A stretch of 64,000 nucleotides of DNA from Octopus vulgaris (Eukaryota). Below are positions 9,093 through 58,646 of the stretch, one piece after another. Location of the stretch: the NCBI GenBank assembly GCA_951406725.2, contig OX597829.1:24676001-24740000 (forward strand). Reading direction: 5' to 3'. The notes under the pieces were generated by a model that worked only from the letters and a program-made list of their open reading frames with translations, did no database searches and had not been told where the DNA came from. Position numbers and translations under genes: made by a program. Numbering within the stretch: the first letter of the stretch is position 1; every line of letters starts with the position of its first letter.

Positions 9093-9168
9093 TACAATAT
9101 ATATATATTAGTCGAATAAAGTTAAAATATAGCCTGGTTTTTACATCTTTTATTATGGTATTTTAACA

Positions 9169-9206
9169 AAATTAGTGCTTTCATACATAGTGTACTCATC
9201 AGATTT
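9169..9206 (-). ncRNA. Minimal type-I hammerhead motif (mirror copy, sense to the Rad6 pre-mRNA)
   Basis: Minus strand reads aaat-CTGATGA-gtaca cta tgtat-GAAA-gcac-TA-attt; stem III has one CpG-type change (gcgc to gcac). Confidence 0.6.
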
Positions 9207-9308
9207 CAAATGTATTTAACTGACAGTTGAGTTCCTGACAACTTTAGTACCTCTTAGAGCACTCCAGCCAGCTGGTTGGAGCATTCTAAGAGGTACTAAA
9301 CACATTTT

Positions 9309-9346
9309 AAATCTGACGAGTACATTATGTATGAAAGCGCTAATTT
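9309..9346 (+). ncRNA. Minimal type-I hammerhead ribozyme motif
   Basis: aaat-CTGACGA-gtaca tta tgtat-GAAA-gcgc-TA-attt: stem I aaat/attt, intact core, 5-bp stem II, palindromic stem III AGCGCT, CUA cleavage triplet. Confidence 0.7.
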
Positions 9347-10018
9347 TGTTTAAACACCATATTAAAAAACGTGAAAACCAGACTACGTCTTAACTTTATT
9401 CAACTAATGTACAGATTCACACAAATTCGAAACTATATATATATATATATATCATAAATACAGTGTACATTTAAACACATAAGAGGTGGCCATAATAGGA
9501 CATCTAACCCACTAGAAGGAGTAGTTAAAATCCAAACCACTACAGGCTAGGCCACTGGTGGTAAGAAATTTTTAAATAATTTTTCACTACCCTGAAATTT
9601 ATATATATATATATACATTACACACACATAATCATCATCATTTATATAAAATGTACACAAACAGAATTGCCCAGATGAACAGCTGTATTTAGTTAGTTAT
9701 AAATATTTGGCGTTAATATACTTATATTTTTATATTTTTGTAAATTTATGTTTTTATAATTTTATTTTAAATTAATCTGAGTAACTGATTTCCAGAGAAG
9801 CAATGTTACTAAGGCACTAATGCTCCTAGAAAGGCATGAATGCCATAGTATTTCATGTGCACAAGCTTAATATCATTAACAATGTTTGTAGTGTCAAGTC
9901 TGAAAATAAAATTTAATACAATAGACACTTAAAACTACTTTAAAACATTCTAAATTCGAACCAGTTCTTTTACTAAGTGTAACACATTCTATTTTACTGC
10001 ACCTACACACCACATTAA

Positions 10019-10233
10019 CCTTTTAACATTTAAATTGGCTATATCTGGCTCAAATATTCTACGTGTTTTATGTACAAACCAGGCAAGTCTGACCTCACAC
10101 ACATACTCTAGAACGTTGTCCTAAAAATATATCATTGACATCTAAAAGCCATGAGATAAAATGCATGGCTAACTCAAAACAATGTGAATATAAAAAAACA
10201 TTACGTTGACATATTAATTTCAATGCTAGAGGG
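10019..10233. mobile_element. piggyBac-type MITE copy
   Basis: TTAA|CCTTTTAACATT ... AATGCTAGAGGG|TTAA. Confidence 0.7.
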
Positions 10234-11475
10234 TTAAGCAGATAAGACTAAGTTTAGCAAGCTGTCATATACTGAATAGGTGTGAAATTTAACATCTGCC
10301 CTTACATCTATCAATCTTTCACATTTTATTACACCAAACTGCAGCTGAAGGATATTTATTTCATATTTTCATGAAAAATAATGTTCTCACGAAGCACTTC
10401 CACTGCACATTTCCGGTTTATTATGACAACTAACAATACATATCAAAGTGAAATTTAAGTTTTACTGTTTCATTCAAATATGCTTTTCCCCCCCGCTTTT
10501 TTTTTTTTTTTTTTTAAAGAATACTTCCTTACCCTTCAATGACATTTCTATGGTTGAAAAGTAAAGCACAAAAACGAAAAAAAAAAAAAAAAGATCTATA
10601 TGAAATATGAGACCTTTTACATTAAAAATATTTAAACAAAAACTGAAATACTTGAAAGAAGCTCTAAGTCAATTAGCTTCTGGTTACAGTTACTGAAAAC
10701 AAAAGATCTGATATTTTGCAAATTTAGAATAAAACCATAAGGTTATTTAAATATTTATATTTGGTTTTTGCTAGATTAATCATTGTCTGGTTATTTTATT
10801 ATTAACCTTGTCATGTTGTATTCCTGCTGTAGCAAGAACAGGTTAAACATTATCTCTGTCATTATCTCTTGGTAAAATGGTAACGGAAAACACACATAGG
10901 GGGGAAAAAAAAGATGCAGCTAATTTTGTTCATTAGTTTGTCTGCAATCGTTACTCTTGAGCTGTATCTTAAATCTTTTACTTGTTTTAGTCATTAGGCA
11001 GTGGCCACGCTGGGGCACTGCCTTGAAGAACTTTTAGTCAAATGAATCAGCCCCAGTACTTATTCTTTAAAAGCCTGGTACTTATTTTATCAACCTCTTT
11101 TGTCAATCCACAAAGTTACAGGGAAATAAGAATTCGGTAGGTGGAAAATGCATGGAAAATCATGGTGTGTATGTTTCACATTTGTGCATCTCCAAATATT
11201 GTAAGCTAGAAGTGGTGACATCATTTTCCCTCTTAACAAATCATGAACTGGCTTTGTACTTTCAAAGAACTGTGAAATAAGAGATCCCTTACTTGAAATC
11301 TGGTAAGGGTTAGTGAAAAGAAGAGTCTCCAGCTATAAAACAATGCCTCAATAATATATTCATCTAAGCCATGCTATCCTGGTGAAATAGATATAAAAAA
11401 TACAAATGGAAAATTCCTAAACTCTTTAAAATGCCAACATTTTGGGGCTAGATTTTGCATAGTATAAGTATGACA

Positions 11476-11905
11476 TGGTAGTATGGTAAAAAGTTTGCTT
11501 CTCAACTACATGGTTTTAGATTCAGCCCCACTACATGATACCTTGGGCCATAGTCTTCTACTATAGTCCAGGGCTTACTAAAGTCTTGGGTGAATTTGAT
11601 AGACAGAAACTAGAAGAAGCCTGCCATATGTGCGTGCGTATGTGTGTGTATTTGCATGCACATGTTATTGTCTCCTTTCCTTAGCACGGCATGATATTTG
11701 TAAAGTGTTACTGTCATGCAAGCAGTGTCCTTTGTTTCTAATCTTCCGAGAACATGTCTGGTCACCGGGAAGTATTATCTTACTTGGAAACAGGTGAGAG
11801 TTGCTGACAAGAAGGGCATCCAGTCATAGAAAATCTGCCTCAGCAAATTTCGTCTGACACATGCAAGCATGGAAAAGTGGATGATAAGGAAAGATGACAA
11901 TGACA
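11476..11905 (+). mobile_element. SINE family C: family-A head with an RTE-type 3' tail (also ~7740-8220 minus and ~20910-21690 plus)
   Basis: Same tRNA head as family A, then a different body ending GAAGGGCATCCAG...CATGCAAGCATGGAAAAGTGG. Confidence 0.65.
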
Positions 11906-12130
11906 TGTAACTCACACAGACTGAGTTTTTAAGAATATGCCTCAAAAGGTAATTGTATTTTTAGCTGTTCTGTATGTACACAGGACTTTGAGCTCAAGTT
12001 GTATAATATTGTTTATCTGACTTGGTAAGAAATGAGCATGTTACATAGTGAACAAAAATACCAAAATGAAAATATACACTAAAAGAATGTAACATTTAAA
12101 TTATTAACGCCATAATCTGAAGATACATAC

Positions 12131-12246
12131 TATTTGGATGAAACATCTTTGATATAAATCTGACAGTAGGTGGTTTGTTGGGATATTCCTCTGTGAATTT
12201 TATTGTTAATTTGAAAGTCCCATCTTCAAATGGCGTATCATTTGGC
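12131..12246 (-). CDS. UBE2A: Rad6/UBE2A coding exon 3 (116 nt; [40 protein letters not shown])
   Basis: Lies inside ORF 12096..12281; CAG acceptor and GTATGT donor; carries the UBC-domain YPNKPP and HPN motifs. Confidence 0.97.
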
Positions 12247-13240
12247 CTGCACAATGAAAATAAAAATAAAAGAGAACACATTACAGAAAAATGATGAAAT
12301 ATTTCATTTCCAAAACTGGAAAAAAAAAATAATAAATAAATAAATATATTAAATAAAATGAAATAGAGAGGAAGGTTTTCATAAAAATGTATACATATTG
12401 TTGAGGTAAGAAATAATATCTGATATAGACACCTAGTTGAAATAAGGTTTGTGTTATTTGCCGATGAGAATTACTGCATAGCAATGATTGTAATAAGGGA
12501 ACAAAAAGGTAGGTACAAAATAAAGAATAGACAAATTGTTTACTACAAGATATAATAAGGAAGAAGGGGAGGATGTAGAGTCAGAAAATATAAAAGGAAC
12601 AGAGTTTGAAACAGGAGAGAGAAAAAAAGGCTAAAAAGGGTTACATTGACTGAAAAGCTAAACATGGCTGAAAGAAAGTTTGTATATCATGTAAATATAG
12701 TTAAAATTTTGTATAGAATTAATAGACAGTTCATTCCATTCGATGGTAGGCCGAATATATTATTTTGTTTCACTCAACAACTAGATTTTTGAGTATCTTA
12801 ATGAAAATCAGTTTCTTGTAAGTAGCTGGACCACCCCACCACCTCCTTTACCATGATGGGTATTAATCACAACAACTTCACTAGCATTTACAATGACCAG
12901 CAAAAGTAAATGTAGTATGGAAAAAAAGGCATCCAGTACAGTCTTTAAAGTGGTTAGCATTAGGAAGGGCATCCAGCTTTAGAAACAATGCCAAAATAGA
13001 CAAACTGCCAAACCAATATCAGTATGCAACACAAATGACAAACTAATGAAGTCAGAATCTAGATGAAACAAAAAAAAAAAAGAAGCATTTAATTAAAAAG
13101 AAAACTTCAAAATATCATGGGGAAGGGGGGTTGTTTATTTTTGTTATTTGAAAGTTCCTACAAACCATTTCCTCAGACAAATGAAATATTTGAAACTAGT
13201 ATTTCTTAAAAATATACTTAGTTAAAAAAACCCAAAAAAC

Positions 13241-13282
<42 letters not shown>

Positions 13283-14287
13283 TGATTCTTAAATTTTCCC
13301 TTTGGCTATTCAAAGTTTATAATATATTAGAAATGTTTTCTTAAGTACTCCCAAAGCAAAAACATTTTAAGTATTAAGCTAAAATGTTTTTAAAATGTGT
13401 TAATTGCACTCAGCCAAATTTCAAAAGCAATAAAAAGATATAGAAAGTAAAATAAATGAAGATTAATTAATAGTTTAATTGCTGGTTACATTGGCAAATA
13501 CTTCGTCTTTGTAAGGTTCATATATTTTGGCAGATAACTGAATGTGTTGTTTACATGGTCTAATTGAAGTGAAAGGAATAAGTAGTAGCTATTGGCAATA
13601 ATGAAGCAATAATCCCAAGACCCAGTCTTTAGTTTTATGATAGAACTCAAATAGCAGTTTCTAATAAGATTCTTCATTTTATCAACCCTTGAAGGATGAA
13701 ATACATGGTCTACCCGGAGAAAATTTGAATGCAAAACAGGTAGGAATGTAACTAAATACCAAAAGACATTTTGTACAATGTTATATTACTGGAATTTAAA
13801 AGTTACAAAAGTTAAACCAATGAAAGAACAGTTTCAGTATGATTAGAGAAAGGAAATCTTACTTCTGGAATTAGGAAATTTCAATACAGATTTCATAAAT
13901 TCATTTTGCAAATATAACCCCCTTGCCGGATATATCTACATTTGGCAGACATCTTCATTGTGAGTGTTATGTCAGACACGACCCTTTGAACAATGTCAAA
14001 TATATTTGTCATGTTTTACGTAAATATGCTTTGACAAGATTTAAATCAGGACGTTAAATGTCATAAGAATTTTGACACACCACTCCAATAACATATTGGG
14101 GCAGACACAACATGGCTGAGAATAGAGAAGCAGTGTAGAAATGCATGGAATAAAGATTTCGTTCGTTCAGCTCTAGCTTGAGGACATTGTACTTTAAAAA
14201 ATCTATCACTTCCAATAATATAATTTTCATCAAACAAATCAAAAAAGGTTGCCTCATTCTAAAAGTTATTTAATCAGCACTAATAAT

Positions 14288-15460
14288 AATGGTTTCGAAT
14301 TTTGGCACAAGGCCAGCAGGTTCAGGGAATGGTAAAAGTCGATTATATCAATGCCAATGTTCAACTGAAAGGGAAGTTAACCATGATGGAATTCGAACTT
14401 GGGATGTTAAGACGGACGAAATGCTGCAAAACATTTTGCCTGATGTGCTAATGATTCTGCTAGCTCGCTGCCTTAACCAATACTAACAGTAGTGATAGTA
14501 ATAATTGTTTCTGCTATAGGCACAAGGCCTGAAGTTAGGGGGAAGGGGTTAGTCAATTATATTACCTCACTACTCAACTGGTACTTATTTTATCAACTCC
14601 AAAAGGATGAAAGGCAAGGTCAATCTCCATGGGATTTGAACTGAGAACAAAGAGCCCCCCCCAAAAAAAAAATATCACTAAGCATTTTCCCTGACATGTT
14701 AATGATTCTGCCAGTTTGCCACCTTAATAATAATAATAATAATAATAATAAACCTTTCTACTAAAGGCACAAGGCCTGAAATCTTGGGTGAGTGGTCTAG
14801 TCAATTACATCGAACCCCCCCCCCCCAGTGTTTCACTGGTACTTAATTTATTGACCCCAAAAAGATGAAAAGCAAAATCGACCCTGGTGGAATTTGAACT
14901 CAGAATATAGTGACAGGCAAAGTACCGCATGTCACCTGGTGTGCTAACAATTCTGCCAGCTCACTGCCTTAATAATAATAATGTTTCTAATTTGGGCACA
15001 AGGCTACCAATTTTAGAGGAGGGATTTAGTCAATGAAACTGACCCCAGAATATAACTGGTACAGTATATAGTCTGAAAGGATGGAAGGCAAATTTAACCA
15101 AATTCATTTGGAAGGAACAAACAACAATTATAACATGAATATTTATTTTATTGACCCCTGCAGGATGAAAGGTAGAAATTGATATAGGGCAGGATTTTCA
15201 AATATAACTTAAAGCTTACTCATCATTTTTAACCAATATTTATTCTGCCATGCAGCCCTCATCCTTTGAATAATAATGGTTTCTAATATGGTCTGAAGAT
15301 CATATATTTAGAAAAGGGAGAAGTCAATTAATAGGTACTTATTTTCGCAGTTGCTAGAAGAATGAACAGAAAAAAATCTTGCAAAATAAACCTCTGGCAA
15401 GATTTGAACCCAGAAACCACAATTTACCTGTCACTTTACCAATTCTGCCACCTGACAACT
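14288..15460 (-). mobile_element. Head-to-tail cluster of about 5 SINE family B copies
   Basis: Repeated GGCACAAGGC...GAACTCAG...CTGCCAG(C/T)T..CC..CCTTAA units separated by (TAA)n. Other family-B copies lie near 47655-47848, 58830-59010, 59805-59990 and 60640-60848. Confidence 0.75.
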
Positions 15461-17690
15461 GTTAATAATAACTCATTGCAAATGTTTAGTAATATTAAAT
15501 TCATGCTTGTTGACACACACACACACACACCTTACAAGTGTCAATTTGTAAAATTAAACCGTTCATTAGTTAGCACTAGAGAAATAAACTGAAATGGTAC
15601 TAGTTTCTATTACAGAGATAAAGGGAAGGTTGGAAACATGTTTAAAAAAACAAAGAAAAGAAAGAAAATAAAAATGTTAAGACAAGATACCATAAGTTAT
15701 TTCTTTATTAATGAATTCTTGAGGAATCTGAACACTGTTATCAATATTACTTGATTTTGCATTCACTTTTTTTCCTCTTTCCTTGGTTGATATGACTGAA
15801 CATGTATATGCTCCAAGTCGTACACTGCAGCTATTTCTTCTAAATTTGTTTGACCCTTTAATATAAAATTTAATGTTGGATGATTTATGGGTGGGAGTGT
15901 TGTTTTTACCCTAAACCAATGCCATTTAATATTGCAGGTCATCATTTTGAAAATCTTCTTCCAGCATACAAAACAATACAGGTTTATTTTTCAATAATCC
16001 AGTACAGTGGAACTGGGTAAAGGAAGTAAAAAGGCAAACTATAAGGTTTACCCAAACATGTTCAGTACTTCACTATTTCTTGTTGAAATCTCCATTGGTG
16101 TTGATTTTACTTTTCATCCCTCTATAGTTGATTAAATAGCAGTTATATACTCAGGTTAATATGATCACTAAATCACATATCCTACAAAAAAGAAAATGCA
16201 GCTATTATACTTCTTGTAGAGGTACAAAAACAAATTCCAATTAAATTTTATAATACTGTTGTTCTTTAAATCCAGGTCAACTTTGATCAAAGATGTTCCA
16301 GCTATGACTATTTTGTCTTTTTTCAGACAGTAGAATGCCGTTTTTTTCAGGGATTTTTAGCTGCTATTCTTAGCAGGTTGATCATAAATATTGAGTACCC
16401 TGTTAGATGATGGTTGTAATGTGGTTATTGTGTAACCTTATCTATCAAAGGTCTGCTGGATTAAGGTCAACGTTATTATAGACAGTGACCTATATCACTA
16501 GAGGTTCCAACACTGACCGTTCTGTATTTTATTTTCAGATTATGCATCTTTTTAAGAACTATATGCATGCCTTCTCATTGAGTACAATAAAGTTTTGAAG
16601 AGGCGAGTGTACAATTGATTGAACAAAATCTAGTGTGTTACATATATCTATATTTGACTGAAGAATAGCAAAAAGTAAAAGTCTTACAATTTGAGTTGAA
16701 ATAGGAGTACTGTTAGTACAGAATATAAACCATCAAATTTAATACAACTATTTGAAACAACATATTAATAGTTACAGTGTAAGTTGTTGGTCTTGCAAAA
16801 ACAGCATTATTTATATCTAAGTAAGAAGACACAATTATACAAGAGAAATACAAAATTGTAACATGCAACCCTTACTCCAATGGTGAAAATTATCAATGTT
16901 TAACTGTTCAACAGATATTTTCCACCAGTGTGGTAATAGCTACACTATGTTTGGGTAATCCCAAGATTTTAAAATGCACAGAGGAACTAGCTCTCAAGTA
17001 TAAATAAATATGTGTTAATAAACACTCTAAACATTTTAACTTTATTTTATTGTCATACATTTAATTTTTGTAATTTCTCAACAGATTTGATTATGATAGA
17101 ATTTCTAATAAAATGAAAAACTATAGAGTTTATGAAGTCTTGGGGTGCTGGTATGGCAGTGTTGTTAATACATTCTATTTACAATTAACATTGCTTTAGG
17201 TTCAATTTCACTATACACTTGGACAAGAAGTTTTGTGAATGAAACTTGAAAGACTGAAACTTTGGGTGACAGACAATCTATTTTCCAGGTTAACTAGCCA
17301 TTGGATGCTTTTAATAGAATCCATTCTGTTGTAAGTATTCAAGTTAGATCTCCCATTGTAAGATATCGTCCATCCTCCAAACTTTTAGAAGCCCTGAATA
17401 ATACAAGCGCTGCCTTTTCTTCTTTAAGTCGTGAAAAATACAAGCAAACAATAACTACACACTTACAAAAACACGTGTTTTAAATCATTACCAACATATT
17501 TTGTTTAGCTATTCTATCAAATTCCTCATTTCCAAGAATGCTAACATGGCCAGAACATCAGCAAGATACTTAAACAGTAACCCAATGATAAAAGGAAATT
17601 TAACTTTCTTTATAAGATTTCATATTTCCAAATTGATTTAGAAAAAAACTTTACACAAGAAAAATCCAGAGACAACATATTCTATGTTAA

Positions 17691-17907
17691 CCCTTTACCA
17701 TTTAAACTGGCCATATCTGGCCCAGATATTTTACTTGCTTTATGTTCAAGGTCACCAGATCCAACCTCTTGCACCTAGCCTACAATGTCATAAAAATAAA
17801 CAACTGCATCATTAAATTCTCAAAGCTAGGAGATAATGCATGATTAATTCAAAACAGTGTGACTAAATAAGGATTACATTAGATAGAGTAATCTAAATGC
17901 TGAAGGG
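17691..17907. mobile_element. piggyBac-type MITE (other copies at 10019-10233, ~25082-25290 and ~46347-46502)
   Basis: TTAA|CCCTTTACCATT ... AATGCTGAAGGG|TTAA; internal sequence is shared among the four copies. Confidence 0.75.
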
Positions 17908-20900
17908 TTAATACTTTATTAACCCTTCTTTATTAATACTTTGAAGGGTTAATAAAGTATTAACCCCTCAGCATAACTGTCTCCAAATGAATCAGATGAT
18001 CTATTCCATATTAAGTTTGCACTGAATACTTGTGTGCATGCAATTTTGTTCAAGGTAGTTACATGATTATTTTAAAATATTTCTTAAGTAGTTTATAAAA
18101 GAGATTGGTGTGTAATTTTCAGGATTACTGATGTACATGCAGTTGGTAAGGAAATATTCTTTTCCTTCTCCTTTGAAGAAAGTGAAAAGAGAAAAATATC
18201 TGAAAGATCAGATGTTATTTATAACATCTTGTCTTGAATAAACAATGAAATCACAATGTTAAATAATAACTTCAGAGTAGGTATTGTTTCACAGGAGATA
18301 TGTATTTCCATTTCTGCTAGTCAGTGAGAGAGGAAAACAAGGAAATTGTAGTTTTTTAGATTATTTGAATTAAAAATTAAAGTGAAGATATTGAATTAAA
18401 ATCAACATGTACTTTTGGAATTAACATTCAAGTGTAGATCTTATAGTAATTTTTTTTCTGTCTTAGTAATTTCAGGAAATAATTCCTTGAAAAGTGTTTA
18501 GAAAATGTTTCATCTTGTTTAATCAATATATTGTAGAAATGTGATTAATAATTTTGATATAGGTTTTTTAATTCCTTATAATTTTTTTGTTAATTAGTTG
18601 GGTATGATTTTGATTACTTTAGAGAGATTTTTCCACAGGAATTCTTCTCAATTTATAATTCTTCTTTCTATTGGTACACAAGGTGTAAAGGGATCACACA
18701 GAAGGCTTTTTTTCTTTTTCTTTTGTTTTTTAGTGACTTTACAGAATCTCAGCAAACCTCAAACAATGGATTGCATTTATGATTTGGAACTGTGACAGAC
18801 TTTGAGTAAACATGGTCAGTTTAATAACTACATCAACAATTTTACATCCACTTTTCTGTGCTTGCAGGAATTGGATCGGTTTTATTTTTCAGCATAATCA
18901 TTTTCATAAGGTTAAGTTTCTTCAACGATTAACCTTCAACAGTTCATCCTATATCTTCCATGGGCTACCTCTTCCAAAGATTATTTCTCCATGGGTCATT
19001 TGGTACTTTGTTAGCCAAGCATTATCTTCCATATACATTGCAACTCTCTTCCAACTCTATCAACTTTGTCTTATAACCCAATTACTCTCTGAATATGAGC
19101 TCCAATATTCATACACACTAGCATTTCACATATAGCAGAACATGTTTGCCTTATTCTTTCCCCATTGAAGACTCATGTTTCACTACTATGCAACCGCACT
19201 TCACAATATCTATCCTTTGCTTGGGGGATAAAAAAAATCCTTTTTTCCTGTTGAGATAATAACTCTGAAATTTTATCACCTCATTCTTACCCTGCTTTCA
19301 AATACCCACCTCCAAGATACAAGATACATCAATGGAATTTGTATCTTTGTGGTACCAGTGCCGGTGGCACACAAGAAAATCATCCGAACGTGGCCGTAGC
19401 CAGTACCGCATAGACTGGCCTCCGTGCTTTGGGGACGTAGCCTCGTCTGGCTCCCCAGACCCCAGTTGAACCGTCCAACCCATGCTAGCATGGAAAACGG
19501 ACGCTAAATGATGATGATGATGATGATGATGATTGATGATCAGGTCATCTAGGTAACAAAAGCCGACACTTAATTCTAGGCATTAGCGAGAATTCATTTT
19601 TATGGGTGCTTTTACAGCTAACTTCTCCTGTGTATTTGCTACATGCAAAGTTTATTTTCTGTGTCATCCTGCCTGTGATACAACTACTACTCTTGGGCAC
19701 CAGTAAATACATGTTTACACTGGGAAACCCATATGTAATTCCTATCTCCAATGCCCACTAACAAGACAGTAGAGCCTCATCTTATTTACTGCACACTAAA
19801 AACCTTTCTCTTGACAAAGTTCTTTAGGCATTGCTTCTATATATGGAATTCCTTTCTTAATTCAACAAATGGAACTACTAAGCTTCTTAATACATTAACA
19901 TTGGAATTGGTTCTAATATGCTTCCTTAATTTTCTACCCAGCGACTGAGAATATCAGAGAACACTACTTTATATTACAGGGAGCTGAGAACAAGTTATTC
20001 CATACAGAATCATAATGGAATTTGAGAGAGACAGTATTTAGCAGTGACAATATTTACTTTTCACTTCTTGGCCACAAATGTGTGAGAGAAATACAGTATT
20101 TTGCTGTTTAAGTTTTGGGTGGTTTAATATGAATCTTCTTTATAGGGTTGTGATCATTAAAGATGCCCATGATTAGATAGGGTTCAGCGGGGGGTTAAGC
20201 TGTCTTTTTAATTCTATAACATAAGCTTCTGTGTCAGACAATTATTGAGCTGAAAATTAATTTGGGTAAAGTAACACAAACGAATGTAATTACATAAAGT
20301 AAGCCAAGAATAACTCAAATGGCCAAGAACATGAATTTTAAAAATTCAGGTAGGTAATGAGTGTATTGAATGATGTATACAAAAAAGTTAGCAATGGATT
20401 AAAACGTTACTCTTAATGAGAAAAAATATATATATAAATCTAACTAATTCTAAATAACGCTCAAAAAAGAGAAGGGAGATAATTTCAAGACACTGTATTT
20501 CACATAAAAATCTTCCTTCTTTGGCAATTAAATCTGATCTATGAGAGCAGAAAAATATAACAGTTACAGGCATGTTAAGGCTCATCAATCAAGACAGTCT
20601 ACTCCAGACTATTTTGATCAATTAACTCAGATTGAAGTATGCAGAAAAACAGTTGAAAACCAATTTTGGCCAATAAATTCACTTTCATAAAAATCTGTTC
20701 ACTGATCATAGCAGTTATTCCCTGCCAACAAACATTAGAATCTCCCCCATCCCCACCTTCCATCCTAAGCATAAGATTTCAATTTTCCAATTTTCTAAGA
20801 AACTGCCTCCCAATTTCTTGAAATTATCTCCCCTTTCCTCTGAGTCACAAACGAATGCTGCTAGGCTTTTGTTTTCTTTCTCTAAGAAAGGAACGTCAAT

Positions 20901-22172: not shown

Positions 22173-22209
<37 letters not shown>

Positions 22210-23380: not shown

Positions 23381-23407
23381 TTTCACTTCAGACCTGGAGT
23401 GAAACAG

Positions 23408-23766
23408 TGTTCCGGGTTCAGTCCCACTGCGTGGCACCTTGGGCAAGTGTCTACTACTATAGCCTCGGGCCGACCAAAGCCTTGTGAGTGGATTTGGTAG
23501 ACAGAAACTGAAAGAAGCCCGTCGTATATATGTATATGTATATATTTGTGTGTGTGTTTGTGTACCTGTGTTTGTCCCCACTAGCATTGCTTGACAACCG
23601 ATGCTGGTGTGTTTATGTCCCCGTTACTTAGCGGTTCGGCAAAAGAGACCGATAGAATAAGTACTGGGCTTACAAAAACAGAATAAGTCCCGGGGTCGAG
23701 TTGCTCGACTAAAGGCGGTGCTCCAGCATGGCCGCAGTCAAATGACTGAAACAAGTAAAAAGAAAA
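23408..23766 (+). mobile_element. SINE family A, 5'-truncated, CpG-rich (young)
   Basis: Starts at GTTCCGGGTTCAGTCCC and retains CpGs. Confidence 0.85.
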
Positions 23767-26929: not shown

Positions 26930-27076
26930 TCCAACCCAGGACTTATTCTTTGTAAGCCTAGTACTTATTCTATCGGTCTCTATTGCTGAACCGCTATGTT
27001 ACGGGGATGTAAACACACCAGCATCAGTTGTCAAGCGATGTTGGGGGGACAAACACAGACACACAAACATACACAC

Positions 27077-27137
<61 letters not shown>

Positions 27138-27313
27138 TATACATACATATATATGATGGGCTTCTTTCTGTTTCCATCTACCAAATCCACTCACAAGGCT
27201 TTGGTCGGCCCAAGGCCATAGAAGACATTTGCCCGAGGTGCCACGCAGTGGGACTGAACCCGGAACCATGTGGCTCATAAGCAAGCTACTTACCACACAG
27301 CCACTCCTACGCC
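26930..27313 (-). mobile_element. SINE family A
   Basis: Reverse-complement copy with an expanded (TA)n. Confidence 0.85.
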
Positions 27314-28007: not shown

Positions 28008-28056
<49 letters not shown>

Positions 28057-28347: not shown

Positions 28348-28672
28348 AGGGTTTTAGTTGAACAAATTGACCCCAGGACTTATCTTTTTAAGCATAGTAC
28401 ATATTCTATTGATCTCTTTTGCTGAACTGCTAAGTTATGGGGATGTAAACACACCAACACTAGTTGTTGAGTAGAGGTGGGGGGACAAACACAGACACAA
28501 AGACACACACACAGATATATGACAGACTTCTTTCAGTTTCAGTCTACCAAATCCACTCACAAGGCTTTGGTCAGCTTGAGGCTAAGACACTTGCCCAAGG
28601 TGCCATGCAATGGGACTGAACCAAGAACCATGTGGTTGGGAAATAAGCTTCTTACCACACAGCCACACCTGT
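28348..28672 (-). mobile_element. SINE family A
   Basis: Reverse-complement copy. Confidence 0.75.
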
Positions 28673-29467: not shown

Positions 29468-29507
<40 letters not shown>

Positions 29508-39619: not shown

Positions 39620-40175
39620 ATACATTTATATTATTATTTACATTGGATGGATATGTGTCCTCATTTTGTTTGTTGTTAGCTGCAGGGACTTCAGCTAACA
39701 TTTTGGCTGATATTTTCTCCAGCCTTCATCAGGTATCCTAGTGAAATTTTGAACACAACGCTGAGTTCTCATTCCTAAGGTATTTTTTGATGTTATTATT
39801 TATTCAAGACACTGCCTGGAATTGAACTCAGAATCTTGGGGTTAGTAGCTTACACTCTTAACCACTACACTATATGCCCATGGGGTTAGTAACCTGTGCT
39901 CTTAACCACTACACTATGTGTCCATGGCAAACAACATAGTGGTTAAGAGTGTAAGCTACTAACCCCAAGATTCTGAGTTCAATTCCAGGCAGTGCCTTGA
40001 ATAAATAATAATAATGACATCAAAAAATACCTCAGGAATGAGAACCCAAGGTTGGGTTCAAAATTCCACCAGGATACCTGGTGAAGGCTGGAGAGTAAAT
40101 CAGCCAAAACATTGTGGTAACAACAAACAAGATGAGGACACATATCTGTCCAATGTAAATAATATAAATAATGTA
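39620..40175. mobile_element. Foldback element B: two divergent units, each a tRNA-like head plus a degenerate hammerhead
   Basis: About 39620-39867 is the reverse complement of about 39937-40175. Head: TAGTGGTTAAG (A box) ... GAGTTCAATTCC (B box). Downstream: CTG(A/G)TGA-a-GGCTG...CAGCC-aaaa(c/t). The spacer holds a ~44-nt duplication of the head. Confidence 0.75.
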
Positions 40176-42943
40176 CAGAATTCCCCATCTCTAAAATATA
40201 GAGCAGTATCATTATAATTTCAATCACATGATATTTACAAAATGTACTTGACATGACTGGATCTACAAGTTACACCTGGACACCTGCATAGCCGTTATAT
40301 ACATATTAATATTCACATGCACAAACACTGACATACAAAAAATATAGAGATTTACATCTATAAACAGAAGATCTTAGAATTTTTCCATTCTTGTGAAATT
40401 ATTTATATACTCAGACACAACTAAAAAAAAAATACAAACAAATGCAGAGAGAGAGAGAGATAAAATAATGAAGTAACTAACAATGCAGTGACATAGCAAA
40501 TTTTGCAATGTCTTAATATTTTCCTTCTCCCTTAAATTTCTTCTCTTTTTCCTCTCTCCACCATCATCACAACTTTTTACCTCTTATTCTATTTGACTTA
40601 CTTCCCTTAGCATTACACTAAAATGGGTGAGAATGCACTATTGCATTCAGATACTAAACTATATGTATGTCTTATATAACATTATTGCTGCTATACAACA
40701 ACCACTACCTATACTTATGTCTTATATAAACATAACTACTGCTGCACTACAGGTGTAATATGTACTTATGTCTTACATTACCAATATACTAAACTACAAA
40801 ATATATATCTCAACTACTCTGACTTCACCTCACCATCTAGCTAAACCCTTCATTGCTGGAACATTTCCATTGTTTAGGATCTACAATTCCACTTATAAAT
40901 AATTCCAATGAAGATATCCTGTTTCCTGTAGAGTGGATGTGCTTACTCTACTATATAGTTAGTTATAAATTCAGGCCTTGTTTCAACTTTTCTGTTATGT
41001 GTCTATCTCAATGGCATACACTCAACTACTTTAGAATTGAATTAGTGACAGAAATTTTATTGTTCCAATAAAATCCATGAAAAAAAAAAAGAAAGAAAAA
41101 AACATTAAGTAAAACTACAATTTCTACTTACAAAACAAAATACAAACAAGATATTTTTGTAGGAGAGGAGGTGTGTAATCAAATAGACCTCAATACAATG
41201 GCTGTATGATGATCTAAAGAGTATTTGAACTAAAAAGAGAGATGAAATTAAACATGGACATGAACTTCTGTCCAATTTTACAACCAGCTTATAAAATAAG
41301 TAACATTTTGTTTGGCCAAATTATATTAACATCGGCATCAAGCTGTTAAAAGGAGGGGAACTGGAGTAAATAAAAAAATTAGACTTGGTTTACTTTTCCT
41401 AAAGATAAGAAACAAGTTCATATTGATTTATGTTGATAGATCAATACAAGAATCGTCATAGACTACTTTCTATATTGACCTTATATGGGATCTTGACAGC
41501 TTTTTAATTTTTCTTCATATACAAAGTACATAGTTAATGTTTCGCATACTCCAGTACAGGTGAACAATTCACAGAGACTACAATGTGTATATACACAACT
41601 AAACACATGCACTAATTAAAAACAAAATATTTCACATTCAAAGTATTCTTAGCTATAAAACAAAAAAAAAAAAAAAAAAATAGGTAAACAGTTGAGTTGA
41701 AGAATGATAATGAGCACAATACATCTGAGAGTACATTTGCAGTGAATATATGGTACAGAGATCCTTGTAATGTACTTACCTGGCTAAGAGCAAAAGTGGA
41801 GAGAGAGCGAGGGAGAGAGAGAGATTTAGGCAAGTGTACTAAACAAGAAATTGCTGATTTCAGAGGGGTTTTTTTTTAAACTTTGGTTTTATTTTAACAA
41901 TATTGAGATTGAAACAACTCCAACGGAAATACATCATAAACAAAAAACATTCTCTTGGTGTAGCCAAGTGTAGTCTGAATCTTGTATATGTAGAAAATGA
42001 AACCATTTCTATTGGCACAGGACCATATATTTATTATAGGTGAAGTGTATATATAGGTGTCTAGAACTTAATATTATTATTAAATAATGACATTTCTCTC
42101 AACACTTCCAGAATGACAAAAGACAATGTCAAGTCTGAATTTCATACAAAACTATAAGAGGCAACAAAGCTCAACACTGTAAAGGCCAGATTCTCTGTAA
42201 TTTCTACAACTTTACCAACTGAAATAAAGATTTCTAACTTTGACAGAATACCAGTTATTTCATTAATCCCTTCTACACCCATCAAAAGCAAAGTTAGCAC
42301 AGCAAGATTATAAAAATTTACACAACCAATTCTATCAAGCAGTAAATAAGCCAATAATTGAGCTTATTGTGGTTACTGCTTAAAATAGCAGCCAAATACT
42401 CCTTAAATCACATCCTATATCTTAAAAGAAAGACTCATTTGATAATGCAATTCAGAGTACACTACATATCTATAGACAGCTGAACAGCAGTTAGCAGGTT
42501 GCAGCACATGGCCTAAGCCATGAGCAATATTCTTTATGCAAGAGACAGAAGACTACAAAAGCGTAAGACATGTCAGCCAAGTGGAAAAGCACACAGCAAT
42601 GAAGGCTACAGCTAACACTGCAGCACATTTCATCATGTTTCCAGTGTATGGCTGCCATTGTGCATCTGACTTTGACCTAAGATCCCACATGAGGCTACAC
42701 AAATGAACAAAGTGCTAGGTTGGACTTTATCGACCTCAATAATTGACCAACAGCAAAATATCTATAAGCATAGTCAACCCTGGATACATAACCAGTGTCC
42801 ATAATACAGCATACTTATAGACACTCAGGATACAATACAGGCAATATAGATGTACAGCACAAAATCATTTTGTCTGGTCCTCTACTGAGCCTACCAATTC
42901 TCTTCTTGGATATCTTTTTTGATTCAGTTAATATCAGTTTATA

Positions 42944-44045: not shown

Positions 44046-44099
44046 TACATTCTCTCCCTGTAAAATAGTCAATTATGATCAGTGTATTTAATTACTTGA

Positions 44100-48478: not shown

Positions 48479-48536
48479 CCAAAATATAAACTGTTTTCCT
48501 TTTAGGTATTCAAAGAATCATTGTATCAACAAAGAT

Positions 48537-48813
48537 GATGGTTCTCAAAGCAGTTCTCTTAAAAGCATTCTGGTCTTTCTGCAAGTCAAGGGATCTTTCA
48601 ATAGAAAAATATTTCATAAAAAAAGAGAAGTATTCACCATTTCAAAGTAATCTTTTTATATAATTTGTTTTTCCTTTTAAACAATTCTTATTTCATTTAA
48701 TATTTTATTAAAATATTAAAGATGAGGGTTGTCTGGAGAATATAGGCATGAGTTCTGTGATTTTTGGAAAATAATATAAGGGTTCACTGACAAAATAAGT
48801 TTGGGAACCACTA
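48537..48813. mobile_element. Degenerate hAT-type MITE
   Basis: TGGTTCTCAAA ... TTTGGGAACCACT inverted ends. Confidence 0.5.
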
Positions 48814-51087: not shown

Positions 51088-51173
51088 ATAAATAAATAAA
51101 ATAAAGACCAAGCTAATGAGATCAGACAATATAAATAAATAAAATAAAGACCAAGCTAATGAGATCAGACAAT
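51088..51173. repeat. Perfect 43-bp tandem duplication
   Basis: ATAAATAAATAAAATAAAGACCAAGCTAATGAGATCAGACAAT occurs twice. Confidence 0.9.
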
Positions 51174-52320
51174 ATATGTTATAAAATCTTCAAAAGTATT
51201 ATTAGTGTAATGCCATATTCGAAAAAGAAAAGCATTGCAAATAAAGCAGATATAGTTTTAATTATTCTGTATCTCAGTCCTCTATTAATTATATTCATTA
51301 GCAAATAAAGTAAAACGCCCTTCCTCGTAACTGATATATCCTCTGGAAACCTAGATCATTTAATAACAACAGCAGAGGATAGCCAGTTTGCTGGCTCTGT
51401 GTGTATACACACACATACGTACATAAACACACACTCATGCACTTAAAAAACAGTTCCGATTGTTTCCTAAAGATCCTACCCTAACAAATGAGTAATATTA
51501 TACAAACATAATATACATATACCCATGCACAATCACACACAGAACGTTTGCTAAGGGCACAAAAGCTCGATTACGGAAGTTTATTACTTATTACGCTGTC
51601 AAAATATGTTTTTGGAATATATTTTAATTACAAATTAACACAACCATGCTAATAAGTTAATCATAAAAAAACCCAATTGTTAAATCATTAGAAAAAAATA
51701 ACAACTAGTAAATTAATTCTTAGCCAACAATTGACACCCAGAAATAAGAATAGTTCTGAGAAACTAAATATTCCGCGATATTTAGACAGGAATTCTATAG
51801 AAGTGTTTAAACGAAATGCTTCTTTTTAATTAAGAGTTTATAAGATAAATGAGAACAAGTTGCTAGGTGTATAGACCATTATTAAACAAATCAAGCTCGG
51901 GCAAGCAATAGATAGTACTGGTTGGTACTCTTAACATTTTACTATGAACCAGAGCAAACTAGAAAATAGTAATAGCAACGCGATTGTTTTTGTTTAAACC
52001 CAAAGACATCCAAAACCAAGCAGACAAAATTTGGTTGCTATTTCTAGTGAAGTCGGGTTCTCTTGAATATAAGTCTACATAGCGGTTCTCTTGAATATAA
52101 ATTTTGTTGCTGATTAAGATAAAATATTCCGAAGATTTTGATTAAATATGAAGTAAATGGCAGCGATTCAGGAATAAGGAATGTCGTCTTGAGGTATACA
52201 AAAGGAAGAAAACAGGTATAGGTGTTTATGGAAAGACAAAATAAAAATGTAAATAACACAGGAATGCTATGGAAATCTATTTCAACATAAGACCCAACCT
52301 AAGATATTTAATATTTCATC

Positions 52321-52353
<33 letters not shown>

Positions 52354-52355
52354 TC

Positions 52356-52410
<55 letters not shown>

Positions 52411-54321
52411 AACATATCTCCAAATATACATATATATAATATACAAGCATATCTCTAAATATATATATCTCCACACACACACACACACAATGTGTAGTGT
52501 GAATTAGAGGAGAAAATTCAATTATATGTATATATTTATAGTCTTGGGAGAGTCATTACGCCAATAATAACAACACACGCATAGGTCCAATTCCACTTCT
52601 TTATTATTAATCAATTGGTTAAATATTTTACACACACACACATTATTTACTATGCAGTCAGAAAAAACTGAATAATAGAGCGGAAAGCAGTTTCATTTGA
52701 AAAATATAAATTATAAACAACACAACCTACTTCCTCCTCACAAACATTTTTAATTACGGAATGCAGAGTGGCAAATGATAAAATCTCTTCAAGTACCACT
52801 CAAAGTCAATTAGCAATAAAACTACAATATGGTATTATATAACAAACAAGTATTTTATTTTTTAAAAAAGGTCTTAGTTCAGGTGGAGGACAAATATAAC
52901 AAAATCCCCATTTAGTTTGAAAGGTCATCCATCGAAAGACTTTAGAGACATTAACACCATTGTAGTAATTACAATTATCATCATCATCTTCACTAGTATT
53001 ACTACTATTACAAATACTGTTATCACTACTATTATTACTGCTATTATTACTACTACTACTACTACCACCACCACCACCACCACTGTTGTTTTTATTGGTA
53101 GAGTTGTGTTTGAGAAATGGCATGAACATCACAACTGCTCAATAGCAGCAGCAGCTCCTATAAATGTGATGCTTTTATATGTGAACAGATTTATTAGAGC
53201 CTGGATTGATTCGCTTGACGACCATTTCCAAAGAAATTCGAAATTTCTCACCTTGAGATGATAGCAAAGTAGAAACTAAATTTTAAATATATGAAATATG
53301 TATCACATCTACAATAATAAATGGACTTGCAAAACACCAACGTTAATTAATGGGGAAACATTATATGATATTTTTTTTTTTTTTAAACTGAGTTCTTGAA
53401 TAATTTTCATACTAAGTTTAAAAAAAAACAAACAGAAAAAATATTTTTCTATAATAAAAACAAAGAAAATAGGGAGGTGTGTGTGTATTTGTGTTTTGAA
53501 ATGTTTGGAGCAATGCTAAAGCGGAATGGAGTGAATATTTCTTTAAAGAAACTAGCTACATTAATTAGTTGCCAATTGGTAACATCTGAGGAAAAAATCT
53601 AGATGAAAAGAAGCACCGAAAACATTGCGGCTAAGACAGAAAAAACAAATGAAAACACTCATAATTCGCCATTATCCAAATGGAGAAGAGAGGGGAAAAA
53701 AAGTTTCTAGACAGCGATTTGCGCGTGTGTGTGTGTGTGTGTGTACGATATAATCCGACAATAAACCAAGGAAGGTTGTTTTTAATAAACAAATCAAGGT
53801 GAAGTAGTTAAGGTGTATGAAGTCTGTTTACTAATAATAATAAACATTGTTCATTTGATAACAGAAAAAAAATAATCTCTCAGGACAAAAAGCCAGATAT
53901 TTTCGACCACCAACCGTCGCCTCCTCCACACCACTCGATGGCCTTCATGCAGCACTTTATTTTATCGACCCAGGAAATATGAAAAAGGCTCGAGAATTAC
54001 AAATGATATATGTTTACTCGTCTGGTGCTTAGGGAAGCTAAAATTAGTAAACAAAGATTTTTTTATTTTCTTTAATTATAGTATTTTGTCAATTCTAATT
54101 CCACTGAAATGTAGAAATTGACGCCAAGAACGAATTAGGTTTTGGTTGGAAAAGCAAACGTGGAGGAAGGCAATGAAAAACTTAAATATATTACCCTACT
54201 TCTCTAAATATAAATTATGAAACTGAACACTAATAAAACTATTTTCTCTGGCAATGATTCTTTTATTTAAGTGCTGAGATTAAAAGGAGTAAACAGGTGA
54301 AGTTTATAAGATATATTTATA

Positions 54322-54361
<40 letters not shown>

Positions 54362-54559
54362 GCTGATTAGAAACTAACGCAATACATTTAGGTTCAGTGC
54401 TAAAAATAACAGCTAGATCTCCAAATTACTGTCTTAAATGAATGTGATCAGCTATACAAAAGAAACGCACATACACATGTGAACACGCTATTATTCCATG
54501 CTTGCACAAGTCCTCTCCTCAGCATCTTGTCACTTGTTGTGATCCTTCATAAGCTTCTT

Positions 54560-54947
54560 GGATGAGATTCCACATCATGAAATCAGACTCCAACACCTCT
54601 CCCACATGTTCGTTCCCCCCATGGATCACTAGGTACTTCTTTACTCAACTGTCATCCTCCATACACATCACATACCTCTACCCACTTCAGTCTTCTCTCT
54701 TACACACATCTGATCCTTCTTATACCCAGTTTTTTTTTGTTTTTTTTTTTGTCTTTCGTTCTCCTCCATTTACACTAACTACCACAAAGTTTCCTTCATT
54801 TTCACTAACTATCACACATCCAGCAAAGCATGCTGGCTTCATTTCTGCCCAACCCTTTACACACCCACATTCACTGCCTATGTTTAGCCACCATGTAACA
54901 CCACACTTCATACACAATTATCATACAATCTGCCATTCACAGACAGA

Positions 54948-54989
<42 letters not shown>

Positions 54990-55290
54990 CCCATTGTTGC
55001 TAACAAAGGTAACAGCTCCCTAAACTTTTTACAACCCGTCTTACCCTGGCTACTATGTATTCAGAGCACTCCCTTCCACTGTTAATTAGATCACCTAGGT
55101 AACAGAAGCCATCAACTATTCCTAGGAAGTCTGAGTAGTAGAAAGTATTTCACAGGTTCTTTTATTGCTAATATTGAGGATCTGCTGTAACTGAAGGTCT
55201 TTCTTCTCTTGTCAACAAGCCTGTGGTACACGTTTTGTGTACCCACAGTTTTACAATGCTAATATCATATGGAATTCCTATCTACACCCT
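54560..55290 (-). mobile_element. RTE LINE 3' fragment
   Basis: Homologous to 4340-4800 (GFCYLGDLI, LHGSE-like), broken by (GA)n. Confidence 0.65.
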
Positions 55291-55379
55291 TTCTGCATTT
55301 CAAGCACAGCCACTTCCCAGTTGACACAAGGGTCCTGTGTGCGTGTATATATATATATATATATATATATGCCGAATTA

Positions 55380-55425
<46 letters not shown>

Positions 55426-55820
55426 CATACTCACTGTATATATATATGAGTGTGTGTGGTGATCATGGCTTGCTGATAACATAATATATATTAGTCAAGT
55501 TTTTTGTACGCGAGTTCATTTACATGGTGAAACCAAGAACAGAGAGAACTCAATACCTGGAAGAATAAATAATATTTTGGCATTGTTATTGTTTTAAGTT
55601 TATTATTTCCAGTCCTTGACTTGATTCCTAACATATGGCATTGTCCACCTAAACCTGATAGTGCCCATCCCTCATTAAGACTACGCTTGAAGTTATCATT
55701 AGACAAGAATGTAATGTATTAGAACTGTTGCACTACATTGGAAAACCTTCGAGCTATAATTTCATTTTGTGGGTTTTTTTTAGTACACACGCCAGACATA
55801 CGAATACGCACACACACAAC

Positions 55821-55864
<44 letters not shown>

Positions 55865-56078
55865 GTTGTGTGTGTGTATTCGTATACCCCCACACACTAT
55901 ACATTATATATACTTATATATATATATACACACACACTACACATATTTATATATACACACACACTACATTTATACATACATTCTATATATAAACTAGATT
56001 TTCATATATATACACACACACAATACACACATATATCCACACGCGTATATATATTTATTTTATACTAATATACGCACA

Positions 56079-56127
<49 letters not shown>

Positions 56128-56163
56128 CACGATATACACTACATACATACGCAGAGACATGAG

Positions 56164-56202
<39 letters not shown>

Positions 56203-56873
56203 CACACTAGTAATAAAACTAGTGAAGAGTATGTTTGTGTCATTCAACCTGTTAGAAATAGCAACCTAATCATTGTACATCACAGAATCGGGATAAGTGT
56301 AGGTCTTAAAAAAAATAAATAATTGAACAGAGATGGTCACGCCTGGAACACATACGACGATAATATTGCCCTGAATGAACTGCCCTCGGATAACAACAAC
56401 GATAATGTGTGCATGTCTCTCCCTGCTCACCTTTTATTTTCGTCCAAGACAGGAATTTTAAATAGAATAAAGAACATAGAATGTTTGGTTTAAGATGTTT
56501 CTAGAGAGGGGAATAGCAGAGAATGGACCAAACATATATGGAAGGAAATACAAACACACATATGAGAGTATGAGTGTGCATAGAAGTATAGTGTATATAT
56601 ATTATATATATATTCATAGGTATTACATAGATGTATTTCTATATAAATATGTGTGTGTGCGTGTATATATATATGTGTCGTTAAAACAAAGAACAGTAAT
56701 GTATATACAACATATGATAATAAATATACATACACATAATAACATTTATGTAAATTATATAATAGAATAAATAAGGATATAAATAGAGAGAGAAACGTTA
56801 TTCATATACAAATATGTGTGCGTGTGTGTAGAAAGGGGACATATATATATTTACATATATATATATATATTTT

Positions 56874-56930
<57 letters not shown>

Positions 56931-57094
56931 ATACATACATACATATATGTAATATTTTGTATGGTAGAAGCCATATTGAACATTTACTCTAACAGTAAGA
57001 AGAAATCAAACAGGACATAGACAAGATATACATGTACATAATTTTAGAGAGAAATCTTGTATTAAAATGGCAAGAAAATATGTGTAATTTTTAC

Positions 57095-57138
57095 CTCATG
57101 AAATCCCTCATTAATCGTCTCCTCGCCGGCGTAGCCAT
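57095..57138 (-). CDS. UBE2A: Rad6/UBE2A-like E2 ubiquitin-conjugating enzyme, coding exon 1 (44 nt; MATPARRRLMRDFM-R)
   Basis: Reverse complement reads ATGGCTACGCCGGCGAGGAGACGATTAATGAGGGATTTCATGAG|GTAAAA, matching the Rad6 N-terminus MSTPARRRLMRDFKR. GT donor at 57094-57093; frame joins exon 2. Confidence 0.95.
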
Positions 57139-57764
57139 TTCTGGGGGGGAGGGGGGGCTTATCCGGAGCTTTTACTTAATTTCTGTATTTATCTTTGATA
57201 TTGTTATTGTCGTTGTTATAGTGTTTTGTCTATTTTTTTTTCCCTTTAATATTCAGTTATATATACATATATATATACACACATATATACGTATATATAT
57301 ATATTAAAAAAAAAGAAAAAATTCCTCTTTACCAAGAACGAGATTAAATCACACTTAGGAGTCTGTTTTTTTTTTAGTTGTTGTTGTTGTTTTTGTTGTT
57401 GTTGGCCTTCACTGATGCTGCTGCTGCTGCTGCTGCTGCTGATGATGCTTTTGTGCTTGTTTTTTTGTTGAGCAACGATTTTGTATTTCTTCTTCTTCTT
57501 CCACAAATGTTGGAACTTTCCTAACACCGTTTTTTTTTCTAATTTTATTTATTTATTTATATTTTTAATCTAGTTTATTTATTCCATACATATATTTGTT
57601 ATATGTACTTGTTAGTTACATATATGTATAGAGATAGATACGTATAAAGCCCTCTATATTTATTTATATATACACACATATATATATATATATATAAATG
57701 TATGTACAGACACACATACAAAGTATATGTATTACATTTATTTGTGTGTATTTATATTTTTGCA

Positions 57765-57795
<31 letters not shown>

Positions 57796-57840
57796 TATGT
57801 TTATATCAGTGTGTGTGTATGTATATGTGTTCTTGTTTTT

Positions 57841-57906
57841 ACTTTCCGTTGATGACGTAATGCATCCGGGACTTTCTTTGCACATGCACGTGACATTCAT
57901 GTGAAC
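57841..57906. promoter_or_regulatory. Candidate proximal promoter/enhancer of the Rad6 gene (CRE/ATF-like, E-box and NF-kB-like motif cluster)
   Basis: ATGACGTAA (57852-57860), GGGACTTTCT (57868-57877), CACATG (57881-57886), CACGTGAC (57887-57894) and TCATGTGA (57897-57904) fall within about 60 bp, roughly 720-770 bp upstream of the ATG, with intact CpGs in CpG-poor surroundings. Confidence 0.45.
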
Positions 57907-58433
57907 CAACCAGCCCAGACAAGTCTTTCAGTCGTTACTACCACCACTATTAGTATTGCTGCTGCTACTACTACTACTACTACTACTAATGCTGCTGCTG
58001 CTGCAGTATTACTATATTTATATTGATATGTGGTAATTGTTGTTTAACCACAGGTGAGCTCTGATTCAGCCGATCTATGATCAGAAGCGTTCCACTATCA
58101 ACAACAGCATCTTTTCCTTGCTTCCACACACCCAGGACTGCATTACAGTCCTGTTTTTAAGAAACTAGGTGTAATTTTAGATAGTTTTTGGCTATTATTT
58201 CTAGCCTGTCAAGATACTTCATGGAGGCTGTTTTTTCTTTTAATTATTTTTGTGTATGTTGCGTTGATCGCGTCGTTAAGGAGCTGTTTGTTATTAAGTC
58301 TCGTACTGGCTTTATCTAGGAGAGCGAAGAGCTTCCCGAACTCTTTGCAAAGTTGCACATTTTCCTATTACACCTGCAGGAGCAACAGAATCTCTTTAGG
58401 GATGTAATGCAGGGTGCTGTCTTCTGTTAGAAG

Positions 58434-58465
<32 letters not shown>

Positions 58466-58518
58466 CCGGACTAAACACATAAATGTGAAACAAGGTGTAA
58501 AAAAGAGTACTCAAATAC

Positions 58519-58646
58519 CAGAAAATTCAACAAAATCTGTTACTCTGAGTTTCTCGTTGTCGTTCATCAGACAGTTTTTGCTAGAAAAAACTGTCTGATG
58601 AACGGCAACGAGAAACTCAGAGTAACAGATTTTGTTGAATTTTCTG
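58519..58646. mobile_element. Foldback element C (near-perfect ~61-bp arms) with a hammerhead motif in each arm
   Basis: 58519-58579 versus 58586-58646 differ by one mismatch; centre GCTAGA; (TA)n runs nearby on both sides. Confidence 0.8.
58591..58628 (+). ncRNA. Minimal type-I hammerhead ribozyme motif (mirror copy on the minus strand at 58537-58574)
   Basis: ctgt-CTGATGA-a cg gcaa cg a-GAAAC-tcaga-GTA-acag: stem I ctgt/acag, intact core, palindromic stem III ACTC-A-GAGT, GUA triplet. Stem II is weak (2 bp plus a GCAA tetraloop). Confidence 0.7.

Follow-up and report, generated by a model that had tools for sequence, protein, structure and literature searches.

Hammerhead-bearing palindromes in Octopus vulgaris as probable insertion products of coding Penelope-like elements

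A stretch of 64,000 nucleotides from Octopus vulgaris (GenBank assembly GCA_951406725.2, contig OX597829.1, positions 24,676,001 to 24,740,000 of the forward strand; the window, in whose numbering positions are given) contains three palindromic elements, A, B and C, with intact or decayed minimal hammerhead ribozyme motifs on both arms. Each palindrome is very probably a head-to-head pair of 5'-truncated pseudo-long terminal repeats (pseudo-LTRs) of a coding Penelope-like element (PLE), likely made anew at every insertion; three PLE families are represented. The reading is carried by the continuity of the arms of A, B and C with reverse transcriptase (RT)/endonuclease frames, by the pairing of one tailed with one untailed arm and, for C, by (TA)n targets. 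A first-pass annotation of the window had proposed a Penelope origin, and indeed all three arms continue upstream into coding PLEs in longer copies. Its view that the elements constitute non-autonomous families has to be given up: the longer copies join coding PLEs, and in C the junctions vary and the tail is found on either side.

The foldbacks were recovered at the places where they had been noticed. A is an inverted repeat of 9099-9218 and 9297-9416 (84% identity), B consists of the pairs 39701-39800/40010-40109 (88%) and 39793-39878/39926-40011 (93%), and the C region 58519-58646 folds into a single 61-bp hairpin (z -23.7). The positions were correct, the extent was not: the elements are wider than first reported because one arm of each bears an extra tail, and the true bounds are 9107-9433 (A), 39620-40208 (B) and 58466-58661 (C). 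In all three the left arm carries its motif on the minus strand and the right arm on the plus strand; the two arms thus meet head-to-head and their 3' ends face outward. The three kinds of arm are mutually unrelated, as had been claimed; the best cross match is 14 nt (E 0.025).

The whole window was scanned with a strict descriptor for the minimal type-I hammerhead, using 200 dinucleotide shuffles of the window as background. Matches were obtained at +9313 and -9202 (A), at +58595 and -58570 (C) and, weakly, at +60320, compared with 0.045 per shuffled window on average and never more than 1. The hammerhead motifs on both arms of A and C are thus confirmed, as is the decay of B: here the strict scan is negative on both arms, G12 is lost on each (GAAA to AAAA), and the core of the plus arm is additionally changed to CTGGTGA. 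An intact core is kept in 21 of 30 other copies of family B. The weak match (60320-60353, plus) has a poor stem III, is unlike A, B, C and a further family D from outside the window, and is probably due to chance. Rfam found no hammerhead in the window, only sub-threshold miRNA matches; this silence is not counter-evidence because its hammerhead models describe canonical motifs. Hairpins without a hammerhead motif also exist at 17892-17980 and at 55798-55885, the latter centred on (TA)n.

Coding families behind the arms

Genome-wide searches were carried out in the source assembly of 2.8 Gb. The high copy number that had been anticipated is evident: 670 candidates for A, 3,696 for B, and 3,636 exact matches to the 35-nt ribozyme of C (control 0). 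The C matches occur as tandems and as inverted pairs 49 bp to 5.4 kb apart. The tandem unit measures 3,365 bp and has an open frame of 727 aa with the motifs RWK (53), DKT (129), CxCx5C (578), CxxC (683) and CxH (711). The protein has 1,761 homologues of about 700 aa; a PDB sequence search with the frame gave no match. All published Hydra-clade motifs that were sought were found, and by these motifs C is the 3' end of a young and abundant Hydra-clade PLE. In the window its tailed arm (58466-58586, minus; (TA)n outside) has a remaining tail at 58466-58518 and a deletion of 33 nt between 58518 and 58519; its hammerhead motif (58537-58574, minus) has one loop-II change. The untailed arm (58581-58661, plus) joins it at a recurrent CTAG hot spot and carries the other motif (58591-58628, plus; predicted cut after 58624). 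Beside another C insertion lies an open 348-aa fragment of a PLE-type RT from a different family (L026:2020-3063, plus; RVT_1 E 0.012).

Arm statistics for C are based on the loci of the first 100 listed ribozyme matches, i.e., 66 loci with 120 arms, numbered from the G at window position 58593. The 3' ends are almost invariant: 56 arms end at +73 and 55 at +139 (111/120 exact), and (TA)3 follows 96 of 111. Exactly one arm is tailed in 43 of 45 inverted pairs. The 5' starts pile up at -24 to 0 (49/120, versus 6 at -124 to -25). Minimal foldbacks account for 26 of the 45 inverted pairs and use about 19-21 distinct junctions, most commonly a perfect palindrome on CTAG (5/26), followed by the window's own variant (2/26). 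Genome-wide these two yield 391 strand matches, roughly 250 insertions when extrapolated from the first 100 matches listed, and 686 C arms match exactly over -26 to +3. In 30 copies of the window's asymmetric junction the tail is on the left in 11 and on the right in 19, and the same junction was found on two sequence backgrounds. Arm lengths form a continuum that extends to full length, and short foldbacks and long copies interleave by the single diagnostic base examined. This base is common to both arms wherever it was readable (51/51 short and 16/16 long insertions, 67/67 together). Since junctions vary, tails occur on either side and two backgrounds exist, the C foldbacks recur as products of the coding family, and the two arms of each derive from a single source.

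For A, the other copies among 40 scored are 82-91% identical. Upstream, longer copies (L051, L047) extend into a decayed frame that encodes a CxxxxCxxC linker and a GIY-YIG endonuclease domain (PF01541, E 4.8e-6, above the Pfam cut-off). In the reverse test, the endonuclease protein was used to find 30 loci, and in 21 of these an A arm lies within 400 nt downstream. By inspection, most copies are flanked by TA. Neptune elements are defined by a Cx2-5CxxC linker between RT and endonuclease and by (TA)n targets (PMC8557442). A fits the 3' end of a Neptune-type PLE; Nematis too has a linker and may fit as well. The untailed arm in the window (9107-9274, minus; 89.5% identity to L047) ends in (TA)n, and its hammerhead motif (9169-9206, minus) has a stem-III palindrome broken by one change (GCAC for GCGC). 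The tailed arm (9269-9433, plus) has a short internal deletion at about 9296 and a shortened tail (9409-9433), followed by (TA)n. Its motif (9309-9346, plus; predicted cut after 9342) combines a 4-bp stem I, CTGACGA, a 5-bp stem II, GAAA and the palindrome AGCGCT. Elsewhere, one A foldback is tandemly repeated with a period of 965 bp (L048/L049), a local duplication after insertion, and family B copies lie within or abut truncated A frames upstream of the A endonuclease (L047, L051). Element A sits in a TA run directly after one copy of a SINE-like repeat (SINE, short interspersed nuclear element) which is abundant in the window (2022-2235, 8719-9095, 23404-23676, 26930-27312, 28383-28670, 61271-61634).

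The arms of B (other copies among 40 scored 89-93% identical) have the order tRNA-like segment, (AAT)n, hammerhead, tail. In the window the untailed arm (39620-39884, minus) comprises the tRNA-like segment at about 39799-39878, a short (AAT)n and a decayed hammerhead (39693-39736). The tailed arm (39935-40208, plus) has a partial segment to about 40001, (AAT)n, a decayed hammerhead (40075-40117) and a tail (40176-40208). Between them, at 39885-39929 (minus), lies a second partial segment, as expected of a template jump at the 5' end of the RNA, which is its likely origin. Longer copies run into a frame with RT thumb and endonuclease that lacks a CxxC zinc linker (L287-L289), and RVT_1 is present in 25 of 26 longer homologues of the B fragments. 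Of 30 loci retrieved with the segment as query, 25 show a hammerhead arm within 250 nt, two of these being the arms in the window itself, and 3 more show one farther away. Conversely, in loci found with the endonuclease the segment directly follows the stop codon (33 nt) in 28 of 30, and a hammerhead arm is present within 600 nt in 26 of 30. The segment is therefore a fixed part of the 3' untranslated region (UTR) of the element. Judged by these frames, B is the 3' UTR of a Penelope/Poseidon-type PLE with a C-terminal GIY-YIG domain and no zinc-finger linker. A free, tRNA-headed SINE was considered for B and dropped, because longer copies run into the coding frame and the segment is fixed after the stop codon.

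What we take to be box A and box B lie in the B segment, spaced as in a tRNA. For comparison, 20 tRNAs of the genome were used, with five usable isotypes and one gene entered in the wrong orientation. In 10 of 10 B heads tRNA-Arg was the top match, alone or in a tie, and it scored above all 100 shuffles in 9 of 10; ARAGORN called no tRNA in the segment, nor did Rfam at five loci. Of 46 arms from hammerhead-found loci 26 reach the segment and 13 its first base, and only 2 of those continue upstream. When 43 heads are pooled, 21 stop at -6 to +2 and 7 run on (5 by script, 2 by eye). The tRNA likeness and the 5'-end pile-up suggest that the segment is a candidate tRNA-Arg-derived RNA polymerase III (Pol III) promoter. 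A 12-nt palindrome at its start coincides with the gathering of 5' ends; because it shares the site, a transcript start and a strand-switch hot spot look alike in B. It is conceivable, if somewhat doubtful, that the B pseudo-LTR took in such a promoter immediately before its hammerhead and that Pol III transcripts beginning at the first base of the segment template most of the short copies; the element would hence give rise to a coding RNA and a SINE-like RNA.

Family D, which is not present in the window, is a very young Neptune-type PLE with overlapping frames of 454 and 775 aa that are alike across many copies (L181-L200, e.g., L192:34-3632, plus). The second frame is -1 relative to the first, with a run of seven T in the overlap; a programmed frameshift or an intron may lie behind this arrangement. 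In the hammerhead of D, U4 is replaced by C, and CCAAT- and TATA-like boxes lie upstream. D, with its 775-aa frame, was tried as a partner of C and rejected, as 20 of 20 loci had no DNA match. The window further contains an exon of a ubiquitin-conjugating enzyme (12099-12470, minus; UQ_con, E 1.6e-14).

Insertion and rival explanations

How would such pairs arise? The element protein would nick both DNA strands and start two short cDNAs, which would later be joined at their inner ends. In vitro, the protein of an anole PLE cuts and extends both strands, and its RT starts at two internal sites that bound the tail (PMC11167929). A two-site start of this kind agrees with the two exact 3' end points of C. 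By analogy, the two cDNAs would begin at separate internal RNA sites, +73 and +139 in C, which would produce the one-sided tail (PMC11167929). In the shortest foldbacks priming would take place in the upstream pseudo-LTR; the cDNAs would end by run-off at the RNA 5' terminus, which would lie immediately before the ribozyme, and would then anneal via short palindromes or microhomology. The 5' pile-up of C likely reflects such run-off, as judged from the copies in the genome. What is presumably an initiator-like motif in C has its A at -15, inside the pile-up. Ribozyme cleavage may supply some 5' ends, since too few of the arms that begin past the predicted cut are captured in the sample. RNA beyond the start sites is required by the anole protein, and ribozyme cleavage is dispensable for insertion in vitro (PMC11167929).

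Several points weigh against this reading. The C frame and the B fragments have no Pfam match; their identity therefore rests on motifs and homologues. The first-pass annotation had called for autonomous partners, and a coding PLE was found for each arm, but no intact full-length copy of A or B among the copies examined. The 5' ends of A arms form only a loose cluster (7 of 47 arms at -88 to -60). In C, a TA-rich box upstream of the initiator-like motif is too close for canonical spacing, and the pile-up may reflect a pause at the ribozyme instead of a transcript start. The C sample, which needs one intact 35-nt core, under-counts arms that start inside or after the ribozyme. The run-off step rests on genomic copies, and RNA 5' ends, cleavage and insertion intermediates are all predicted. 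Lastly, concordant arms fit two cDNAs and one snap-back cDNA alike.

The snap-back version assumes the same origin and differs in one step: a single cDNA would stall at the ribozyme or a short palindrome, snap back and prime itself, so that no transcript start is involved. The junction hot spots do lie on short palindromes, CTAG in C and, in B, the 12-nt palindrome where the segment begins, such palindromes have been interpreted as self-priming (PMC3846280), and the shared diagnostic base of both C arms is as expected. A snap-back, however, predicts a fixed relation between the two arms, whereas the tailed C arm is longer in 16 pairs, shorter in 20 and equal in 7. Moreover, 65 four-base palindromes are available in the 500 nt upstream, yet C junctions gather only at -24 to 0, and many junctions within this cluster make no use of CTAG. 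We consider this version rather unlikely.

That the short foldbacks propagate by themselves, with a PLE protein copying in trans the transcript of a master foldback, is a good deal less probable. It draws on the identity of 40 of 40 scored C matches over 64 nt including the junction, on the roughly 250 insertions with two exact junctions, and on the candidate internal promoter of B by which solo B arms could be transcribed. The identity, which had made C appear as a fixed foldback unit, turned out to be an artefact of a junction-spanning query, and the pattern search with its varied junctions overturned that notion. The alternation of the tail between left and right at one asymmetric junction, the occurrence of this junction on two backgrounds, the 19-21 junctions in 26 short pairs and the continuous arm lengths likewise speak against a master copy. 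In addition, foldbacks lack the RNA beyond the tail that the anole protein requires (PMC11167929). Finally, short near-perfect palindromes with TA at both flanks resemble miniature inverted-repeat transposable elements (MITEs) of a TA-targeting DNA transposon, in which the hammerhead motifs would be incidental. This is next to impossible. The motifs are far above chance, the ends are asymmetric owing to the one-sided tail, 5' truncation is variable, tandem units exist, and the linkage of the arms to RT frames already refutes a MITE, as the first-pass annotation had foreseen; a MITE would instead be expected to show symmetric terminal inverted repeats, a fixed target-site duplication and a transposase partner.

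The ribozyme motifs

Families A to D are unrelated, yet a stem I of 3-4 bp and a palindromic stem III have been retained in all of them, each time with a different sequence. This points to selection on the ribozyme in the parent elements. Stem II of C is only 2 bp long and closed by an A-A mismatch; the position of G10.1-C11.1 is occupied by G-C in B and by G-U in A. Within families selection on the hammerhead is not visible: core and flank identities are 0.963 and 0.954 in A and 0.978 and 0.961 (non-CpG) in B. A covariation analysis across copies, proposed earlier, is uninformative because the cores of A and B decay about as fast as their flanks and C is nearly invariant.

Monomer folding of A or C gave no significant hammerhead fold. 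For A, C and D, RNAcofold predicts that the palindromes pair across two molecules; this concerns pairing, not catalysis. A foldback does not amount to a dimer arrangement: the paired ribozymes are on opposite strands, one transcript contains one ribozyme plus its antisense, and a foldback therefore cannot supply its own dimer. In a C foldback transcript the lone ribozyme is predicted to pair with the antisense arm (-102 kcal/mol). According to these folding models the hammerhead inside a foldback is likely inactive, a passenger. Its function would lie in the parent element: there the ribozyme would cleave tandem RNA, either in dimeric form or aided by protein. Dimer activity reported for minimal hammerheads is low (PMC4209133).

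Relation to described elements and significance

The architecture has been described before (PMC3846280, PMC4209133, PMC8557442). PLEs with inverted pseudo-LTRs share head-to-head 5'-truncated copies, an optional tail on one arm, junction palindromes or microhomology, tandem units and (TA)n targets (PMC3846280, PMC8557442). The C tail of 66 nt exceeds the published 30-40 nt (PMC3846280, PMC8557442). About half of the C insertions are minimal foldbacks starting in one 25-nt window, and a comparable count was not found in the portions of the literature consulted. Metazoan minimal hammerheads have in common with ours type I, a short stem I, a palindromic stem III and, for B, an extra base after A9, and opposite-strand dual motifs 100-700 bp apart were noted for them (PMC4209133). 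They differ in a conserved G10.1-C11.1, which is G-U in A and A-A in C with its 2-bp stem II, and in U4, which is C in family D (PMC4209133).

The cutting and extension of both strands, two internal RT starts defining the tail and AT-rich targets are shared with the Poseidon element PAc of Anolis carolinensis (PMC11167929). PAc represents one clade in vitro; here, the matching genomic signature was counted for a Hydra-clade family, and B adds a tRNA-like segment. With the Hydra clade C shares a single frame, a C-terminal endonuclease, all five motifs listed above, the hammerhead and (TA)n targets; its unit of 3.4 kb contrasts with 'generally <3 kb', and C is very young and abundant (PMC8557442). 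Retrozymes and tRNA-derived hammerhead retroposons also have type-I hammerheads and, as in B, a tRNA-like head beside the hammerhead (PMC7229834). Retrozymes, however, are non-coding head-to-tail tandems with canonical hammerheads, whereas the B segment is fixed in the 3' UTR of a coding PLE and its copies are inverted pairs (PMC7229834). Thus, architecture, ribozyme class and clades are already published, and the families themselves may be on record in supplements or repeat libraries. A literature search that covered few subscription papers disclosed no paper on a tRNA-like promoter within a PLE pseudo-LTR and no published count of a PLE 5'-end pile-up.

For annotation, palindromes of this kind are to be treated as Penelope insertion products, not as MITEs or miRNA-like genes. 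Family C, whose thousands of copies are nearly identical, end at two exact 3' positions and show a sharp accumulation of 5' ends, provides a genomic test of two-site priming, and its open 727-aa frame makes the Hydra clade assayable. If the B promoter works, it would connect PLEs directly with tRNA-derived hammerhead retroposons such as Schistosoma Sm-alpha, a connection that the literature search did not turn up. If this is true, and taken together with C, minimal foldbacks would be 'strong-stop' products preserved in the genome, from which PLE transcript starts could be mapped with no need for RNA data. Beyond this, the foldbacks seed many perfect double-stranded hairpins, which could feed RNA editing or silencing.

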